DNA of 64,000 nt, taken from the NCBI RefSeq assembly GCF_011045215.1, contig NZ_CP049201.1; one strand, 5' to 3'. Under the pieces are notes generated by a model. That model did not search any database and was not told where the DNA came from. It was given only the letters and a program-made list of their open reading frames with translations. Within the stretch, counting starts at the first letter, position 1, and every line of letters begins with the position of its first letter. Of the stretch, positions 8,553 through 9,065 are shown one piece after another. The position numbers and the translations under genes were made by a program. This DNA comes from Escherichia coli. GTDB taxonomy: Bacteria > Pseudomonadota > Gammaproteobacteria > Enterobacterales > Enterobacteriaceae.

Positions 8553-9065
8553 TCACTCGTTACATAACTTCTGTCCGGACTCACCATGCCGCTGTTTACG
8601 CTTCTCATTCAGTATCATCAGCCGGGTTTCTGCCTCTTTCTGCTCCTGTGGTGTCACTTCGCCGCATGGCTGCCCTTTCAGGTCGTAACGGGCGCCACCG
8701 GCCATTAACGCACGGTAATAGCGTGGGGACTGTACATAAGACGCCACCGCCGCACGTAATGCACCTGTACCAAATACCTGTTTTCTGAGGGTGATATCCT
8801 GTATCAGGTCGTCAGCTATCCCCACTTTAATTGGCTTCGGATTTTCACGGTTGAATAACTCAGGCCAGAGCTCCACAAGACGATTAATACGCTTACGATT
8901 TTTGCGCTGGCGTTTTGTCATATGCCGCCACGGTGTTTTATTCGCAGGCTTCTGTCTGTCATTCACTTGTGGTGGTATCCGTCCTTTGTGTGCTGTGTTC
9001 GTTTTATCCTGCTGTGGCTTAGCAAAAATCCCCTGCGGTTTACGGTTAATGGTCAGCGTTACCAT
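8553..9065 (-). CDS. FinO/ProQ-domain RNA-binding protein
   Basis: Region INRLVELWPELF...KPIKVGIADDLIQ...LRAAVASYVQSPRYYRALMAGGARYDLKGQPCGEV matches the ProQ/FinO N-terminal domain pattern, preceded by a Lys/Arg-rich tail; start chosen at the ATG giving MVTLTINRK (the ORF track extends further to 9257, which is less likely). Confidence 0.6.
   Translation of the reverse strand: MVTLTINRKPQGIFAKPQQDKTNTAHKGRIPPQVNDRQKPANKTPWRHMTKRQRKNRKRINRLVELWPELFNRENPKPIKVGIADDLIQDITLRKQVFGTGALRAAVASYVQSPRYYRALMAGGARYDLKGQPCGEVTPQEQKEAETRLMILNEKRKQRHGESGQKLCNE

Follow-up and report, generated by a model that had tools for sequence, protein, structure and literature searches.

The window analysed here, a 64,000-nucleotide (64-kb) stretch of Escherichia coli DNA, carries on its minus strand at 8553..9065 a gene for a 170-residue FinO/ProQ-domain protein (ATG at 9065–9063, stop codon at 8555–8553). 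Our preferred reading, which we hold at a probability of roughly 0.65, is that this gene is an intact allele from mobile elements of Escherichia and that it specifies a small FinO-domain RNA-binding protein whose targets lie in trans. RNA binding by the window protein is predicted, from its sequence and from a structural model. The original prediction, a FinO/ProQ-type RNA chaperone beside mobile DNA with a partner RNA encoded next to it, stood in its domain assignment and gained no support for its adjacent partner RNA.

Architecture of the FinO-domain protein

The longest form of the reading frame opens at a GTG at 9257 and runs to the same stop at 8553 on the minus strand. We placed the start codon at the ATG at 9065 because the family-wide N-terminus begins there; the family alignment opens with M-x-x-L-T-I-N-R-K-P, and on this alignment the ATG is the conserved start. 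Against eleven relatives the gene gave dN/dS values, which mirror past as well as present constraint, of 0.19–0.35 over its whole length, 0.09–0.27 in the domain and 0.2–0.4 in the N-terminal extension (Nei-Gojobori). Judged at the sequence level, it is a real, protein-coding gene under purifying selection. The family annotation of the product was already known, as the identical 170-residue protein is public (UniRef A0A0Q3GX71_ECOLX, 198 contigs) and is called "ProQ/FINO family protein" by PGAP and UniRef.

Profile, fold and conserved RNA-contact residues agree on the FinO/ProQ domain that had been proposed for this reading frame. The profile search suggested as a check, for which the lack of a match had been named as the refuting outcome, gave a match to Pfam PF04352 (ProQ/FINO) of 83.2 bits (E=1.5e-23), the cut-off being 27, over profile positions 4–107 of 109. 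The three motifs that had been read from the letters are present, with ELWPELF at residues 65–71, KPIKVGI at 77–83 and YYRALMAGGARYDLKGQPCGEV at 116–137, as is the Lys/Arg-rich tail ahead of the domain, where residues 1–66 contain 18 Lys/Arg and 3 Asp/Glu as counted from the sequence.

The AlphaFold2 model, for which 62 homologues were used, averages a pLDDT of 85, with residues 1–45 of low confidence and unstructured (Table 1). The N-terminal extension as a whole (residues 1–48) has pLDDT values of 55–67 and is modelled without secondary structure, and its motif is kept across the family. In the basic segment that leads into the domain the model helix spans residues 51–66, of which K55, R59, R62 and L63 are invariant in the family. 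The final ~17 codons (below ~8605) are unlike those of island-clade relatives. All 26 significant (top) matches of the model in a Foldseek search of the PDB are FinO-domain structures, with FinO (1DVO) first and RocC, NMB1681 and Lpp1663 also among them. A sequence search against solved structures returned the same set together with the ProQ N-terminal domain, at E values of 1e-7 to 1e-11.

Table 1 Coordinates of features of the gene, its surroundings and related loci. Positions are those of the window; those given after an L number are positions in that related locus.
Feature	Position	Strand	Description
N-terminal extension, residues 1–48	8922..9065	−	basic, predicted disordered; motif M-x-x-LTINRKPxG, then Gln/Lys-rich variable linker
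Basic helix, residues 49–66	8868..8921	−	W-R-H-M-T-K-R-Q-R-K-N-R-K-R-I-N-R-L, conserved, leads into domain
FinO-domain core, residues 67–138	8652..8867	−	putative RNA-contact residues K80, R104, Y116, R126; pLDDT 94–98
Long C-terminal helix, residues 139–170	8556..8651	−	model helix at residues 139–168
Upstream region of the gene	9066..9191	−	putative promoter and 5' UTR; aligns with island-clade copies even where DNA further upstream is unrelated
Small divergent ORF	9373..9654	+	93 aa here; 57, 75 or 118 aa (57–118) annotated elsewhere; starts MARPKGALNKRT; coding doubtful
UCP030791 remnant, last 16 codons	9795..9842	+	LKTVVQSFMLPVLVTI; tblastn of UCP030791 proteins against the window
ECs1377-family gene	9904..10563	+	NCBIfam NF052300, 317.9 bits against a cut-off of 190; start of cargo-side module
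77-aa ORF	10650–10883		after ECs1377-family gene
DUF4222	10936–11127	−	Pfam, 80.8 bits
IS4/Tn5-type transposase	507–1922
IS110 transposase	2658–3677
IS66 TnpC	3863–5365
Frameshifted-variant or damaged-copy sites	L002 11973–12487; L095 4001–4345; L012 4367–4881
IsrK/C4 sites	L015 1236–1424; L017 798–983; L033 616–801; L043 and L045 1185–1370; L091 14–101

Residues K80, R104, Y116 and R126 align respectively to K35, R58, Y70 and R80 of ProQ, which genetic evidence shows to be required for RNA binding (PMC7192607), and Y116 and R126 are invariant across the 62 diverse homologues. ProQ also needs K54 for RNA binding. The counterpart of this residue is Thr100, and the clade carries T, A, P, Q or S there rather than a basic residue. 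K54 is a conserved residue and is not diagnostic of the family.

The protein is neither FinO, ProQ nor FopA proper, with sequence identities of about 30% to each. In its predicted build, a disordered basic extension followed by a basic helix, the domain and one C-terminal helix, it resembles plasmid FinO more closely than chromosomal ProQ. Among known structures, FinO of F-like plasmids (PDB 1DVO) matches best (Foldseek E=4.9e-7, rmsd of 1.8 Å over 100 columns) and shares the basic disordered N-terminal extension, the domain, the C-terminal helix and carriage by a mobile element. However, the identity is 32% over 90 residues only, the window protein has a far shorter helix linking its N-terminal Trp to the domain, and the score against NCBIfam NF010317 is 56.1 bits with a cut-off of 136; moreover, the window gene is chromosomal and has neither a tra operon nor FinP/traJ. 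The N-terminal VLTLKRKTEG of FinO lines up with the window motif in a multiple alignment and is absent from pairwise BLASTP, which counts against our preferred reading.

ProQ of enterobacteria (PDB 5NB9, N-terminal domain) gave the strongest sequence match to a solved structure (E=7.4e-11) and has the four equivalent RNA-contact residues given above. It differs in that the window protein scores 55.2 bits against the NCBIfam equivalog NF003434 (cut-off 127), has no linker and no Tudor-like C-terminal domain, and ends at residue 170 after one helix; the window gene is accessory and island-borne, whereas the ProQ gene is core. The FinO-family protein of pCol1B9 (IncI), WP_000517689, is annotated as ProQ/FINO family and is no closer than FinO or ProQ (32% identity over 94 residues, E=7e-9). 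The FinO-domain protein of this plasmid has been named FopA (PMC9977716) and, like the window protein, it is small, has a FinO domain and comes from a mobile replicon. Replication is repressed by FopA and PcnR via antisense RNA (PMC9977716). Around the window gene, searches turned up neither an Inc-like antisense RNA nor a rep mRNA leader. RocC and Lpp1663 (Legionella) and NMB1681 (Neisseria), chromosomal regulators of other genera, have the same fold (TM-scores 0.72–0.86, normalised to the target) at ~25–32% identity, and their extensions are unlike those of the window protein, RocC having a long C-terminal extension and NMB1681 being a minimal domain.

Island setting and the search for a partner RNA

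The window region is a chromosomal genomic island of E. coli, and the mobile DNA that had been noted beside the gene is there in the form of IS4/Tn5-type, IS110 and IS66 transposase genes at 507–5365. This pile-up of insertion sequences also holds a 193-aa ORF on the opposite strand at 5062–5643. To the left of the FinO-like gene lie a truncated porin gene (7281–7919), a YfdX gene and the three IS elements, and to its right the ECs1377-family gene, the 77-aa ORF, DUF4222 and a T6SS cluster. This gene order was identical at 16 of the 16 places read, which carry the window allele or a near-identical one. DNA homology to the common island clade breaks at ~8594–8605, within the last 17 codons, and the segment 7920–8605, which lacks any annotated gene, was found in 7 complete genomes only. 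No AlpA, UCP030791, YagK, primase or SSB gene was found by tblastn in the 64-kb window, and PADLOC gave no defence-system match for the FinO-like protein or its neighbours. As read from this sequence context, the window copy is of the island type, with its backbone lost. Nor does it belong to a satellite element of the kind described below, the window containing only an unrelated and distant PerC gene.

That PerC-family gene (46212–46508, plus strand), part of the same island, is separated from the FinO-like gene by 37 kb and is 99% identical to that of E. coli C5 and 37% identical to the PerC paired with FinO-like proteins in satellites. Fifteen nucleotides past the stop of the truncated porin gene, at 7934–7966, is a perfect 15-bp inverted repeat with a 3-nt loop (ATATACCGGAGAGGT TCC ACCTCTCCGGTATAT). 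It has a 121-nt fold z-score of −6.9 and no Rfam match, and it is probably the terminator hairpin of the porin gene. As the sole fold outlier of the scan it was considered and set aside as unrelated to the FinO-like gene.

A dedicated sRNA or antisense RNA had been expected in the adjacent intervals 8400–8550 or 9066–9900, an arrangement that would make the locus a compact cassette of the FinO/FinP kind. Two observations would fit such a cassette: terminator-like motifs number 8 in 7900–11700 compared with 3.6 ± 1.7 in shuffles, and in related islands the 1.47-kb FinO cassette moves as a unit with the small-ORF region. The flanks, however, yielded no such RNA. The whole window gave no Rfam match at gathering score, and at E<5 the interval 7900–11700 gave chance matches below threshold only (DUF2800 RNA, snoRNAs, Ysr35, BSR0709). 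Direct folding was ordinary, with z-scores of +0.55 for 8380–8560 and −0.61 for 9060–9240 (both minus strand), and sliding 100-nt z-scores on both strands of 7900–11600 reached ~−3 at best in the flanks against a background mean of −0.5 (sd 1.3). RNAalifold on six upstream regions returned a covariation term of +1.72, a positive value being penalising, and thus no covariation.

The blocks that are conserved in the 838-nt upstream interval (9066–9903) are each otherwise accounted for, as the gene's own upstream region, the small ORF and the UCP030791 remnant. In the first of these no consensus sigma-70 site was found at the threshold of the scan. The adjoining stretch ~9192–9355 (9230–9355) is allele-specific and contains an unsupported 47-aa ORF, and 8100–8552, on the other side of the gene, occurs in 7 genomes only. 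The small ORF has a weak match to phrog_21027 (E=6e-5) and tblastx links to small genes of two satellite loci (L022 and L011). Between the two allele types compared over 9356–9650, the three codon positions share the substitutions about equally (12/9/14), and one related locus (L002) has an in-frame stop. This segment appears to evolve nearly neutrally at the protein level and is neither clearly coding nor clearly RNA; its DNA is nevertheless ~80–84% identical, and it may have a non-coding role. The segment 9788–9903 was rejected as an RNA candidate because it consists of the 3' remnant of UCP030791, a gene remnant, and the upstream region of the ECs1377-family gene, and occurs in islands without the FinO-like gene too. 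Relatives of the gene in satellites have no such flanks at all. An adjacent RNA was in any case not to be expected, because the RNA partners of the characterised FinO-family proteins are encoded at other sites of the replicon (PMC9977716). Taken with the folding results, we regard a partner RNA in the immediate flanks as highly improbable.

Relatives in phage-satellite-like elements and islands

A DNA homologue is present in 1096 of 5426 complete E. coli genomes (~20%), at up to 9 places per genome, and all 1563 places are chromosomal, with none on a plasmid. Of the superfamily's 1900 representative clusters, 5 matched at E<=1e-30, scanning a single genome for each species gave two loci only (E. 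albertii and Serratia oryzae), and the named close homologues come from E. coli, Shigella and a few Salmonella and Citrobacter. On these sequence searches the clade is narrow and almost restricted to Escherichia. In the literature searched (satellite and island FinO proteins, ECs1377, EcCICFT073) we found no study of it. In a 2018 survey of STEC islands such a gene appears only as a list entry (PMC6174562), and the E. coli 042 genome paper has a proQ-like/PerC-like pair in a small island (PMC2808357).

Relatives at 59–71% identity lie on "viral" contigs of IMG/VR (78 loci, mostly 10–16 kb) and in chromosomal elements. The gene order there is AlpA, AntA/Bro-N, small genes, DUF4222, a primase (of DUF927, AAA_25 or D5_N type), often SSB, the FinO-like gene, PerC and a terminator, and some loci hold a Nu1-type small terminase. 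By their gene content and the definition in PMC10085698, these elements are phage-satellite-like, of the PICI/P4 kind. One of them (L020) carries as cargo, beside the gene for the Nu1-type small terminase, a K88-type fimbrial subunit gene (6437–7246, minus strand; Pfam Fimbrial_K88, 180 bits).

The FinO-like gene follows directly behind primase and SSB genes in 45 of ~85 satellite loci, beginning ~40 nt after ssb, and it overlaps or abuts perC. When loci were recovered independently through PerC relatives (L104–L149), a FinO-like gene lay upstream in 46 of 46, at no more than 45 nt in 44 of them; the overlap, in these loci and in L017–L094, is often 4 nt. The adjacent pairing of FinO-like and PerC genes is obligate in satellites. 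A strong intrinsic terminator follows perC in most satellite loci, the commonest being the hairpin GGCCGGGATTTTTCCCGGCT with a U-tract, and at least four unrelated hairpin sequences occupy the same position. A survey of predicted terminators found no consistent site for a conserved antisense terminator within satellite loci besides the operon terminator after perC.

The place of the gene behind primase and SSB genes bears on an extremely improbable alternative, in which the protein acts on DNA, for example as a replication helper of the excised element together with SSB and primase. Against it, all characterised FinO-domain proteins bind structured RNA 3' ends (PMC9977716), the RNA-contact Tyr and Arg are invariant, and the linkage to perC (46/46) is tighter than that to ssb (45/85). 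For the satellite gene in this position an analogy with FopA and PcnR is plausible.

Tandem Rfam matches to IsrK and the C4 antisense RNA (P1/P4-type immunity RNA) were observed ~4 kb upstream of the FinO-like gene in 6 of ~85 loci, in one of which (L091) a C4-like RNA alone was detected and IsrK was not found. C4/IsrK were rejected as universal partners, being confined to these six loci and present neither in island-type loci nor in the window.

Closer relatives, at 74–83% identity, lie in classical tRNA-type islands at the edge of an AlpA/YagK backbone. This backbone comprises YagK/YfjJ (inovirus Gp2-like), a 190-aa protein, AlpA and UCP030791, and runs head-on to the FinO-like gene. The stop codons of UCP030791 and the FinO-like gene are 1 nt apart (4214/4216 in L013, 4516/4518 in L097) and no terminator is predicted between the two convergent genes in intact islands, which implies overlapping antisense 3' ends of both transcripts. 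The FinO cassette of ~1.47 kb is flanked by diverged direct copies of the UCP030791 3' end (4120–4145 and 5595–5620 in L013), and in islands without a FinO-like gene UCP030791 directly precedes the ECs1377-family gene. Because diverged UCP030791 3' copies bracket the cassette, of which the window keeps the right-hand remnant only, the sequence suggests that the cassette entered by insertion or recombination at the UCP030791 end.

Proposed mode of action, decay and meaning of the clade

Work on the family (PMC9977716; PMC7367173) describes a domain that grips terminator hairpins ending in a 3' U-tail and makes them more stable, and an extension that contributes chaperone activity and selectivity. 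By homology, the domain of the window protein would hold on to the hairpin and U-tail with which intrinsic terminators end and protect such RNAs from decay, and, as in the family, its basic extension would give specificity and RNA-duplexing activity. The clade is native to AlpA-regulated mobile elements of Escherichia. In satellites the gene would be co-transcribed after the primase and SSB genes and paired with that of a PerC-type activator, in an operon closed by a terminator, and by analogy with FopA and PcnR, which restrain replication, the protein may act on the terminator-ended mRNA of this operon or on antisense regulators. Where an island is intact, transcription of the gene towards the backbone operon would give overlapping 3' ends, which are natural antisense substrates. 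A rearrangement would have stripped the window copy of its backbone; its allele is intact and stably inherited across hundreds of assemblies. Because neither the satellite nor the intact-island setting applies in the window, any RNA target of this copy would have to be supplied in trans, by other resident elements or the host rather than by the immediate flanks.

Members of the clade do erode in chromosomes. In E. coli, one very common variant (P0081, 408 contigs) has suffered a frameshift that leaves a 114-aa domain-only product starting MTKRQRKNRK, with its N-terminal part annotated as a separate 57-aa ORF; other E. coli copies are annotated as pseudogenes; and in a near-identical copy (P0002) a stretch of the domain sequence is scrambled. 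Erosion is frequent among FinO-like genes integrated into chromosomes (PMC9977716). The main rival to our reading draws on this decay and holds that the gene is what a decayed mobile element left behind, its ORF still open and of no function for cell or island. The loss of the backbone, the rare and unannotated downstream DNA and the lack of a detected consensus promoter would all suit such a relic. Yet hundreds of assemblies keep the 170-aa allele intact within an unchanging local gene order, full-length proteins make up most of its 90% cluster, its upstream region is conserved and its dN/dS is low, though past constraint also counts in dN/dS. We therefore consider the relic reading unlikely. 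The points that weigh against an RNA-binding protein acting in trans, besides the N-terminal motif discussed above, are Thr100 at the position of ProQ K54, the lack of a convincing upstream promoter and the many frameshifted or pseudogene paralogues in E. coli.

The pairing in satellites invites a more specific proposal, which we think quite unlikely as it stands: the FinO-like and PerC genes would make up a regulatory module devoted to Escherichia phage satellites, in which the RNA-binding protein times satellite replication or induction and orphan island copies act in trans. Its target would be a transcript of the satellite or of a helper phage, with the terminator-ended primase-ssb-finO-perC mRNA or the antisense immunity RNAs of the C4/IsrK type found in some satellites as candidates. 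If this proposal is true, orphan copies act on co-resident satellites or prophages, a form of cross-talk at the RNA level that is as yet undescribed for mobile elements.

Among bacterial RNA chaperones, FinO-domain proteins make up the third major class, and to our knowledge targets are known for only a handful of them. At the locus itself the existing annotation is already correct, and its flanks are no place to mine for a cognate sRNA; the FinO–PerC pairing in satellites is the only lead worth following. The clade is often multi-copy within a genome and occurs in about one-fifth of complete E. coli genomes. If it is active, pathogenic and commensal E. coli hold extra, strain-specific RNA-binding regulators beside ProQ, which may influence satellites and prophages and, via PerC-type regulators, the control of virulence genes.
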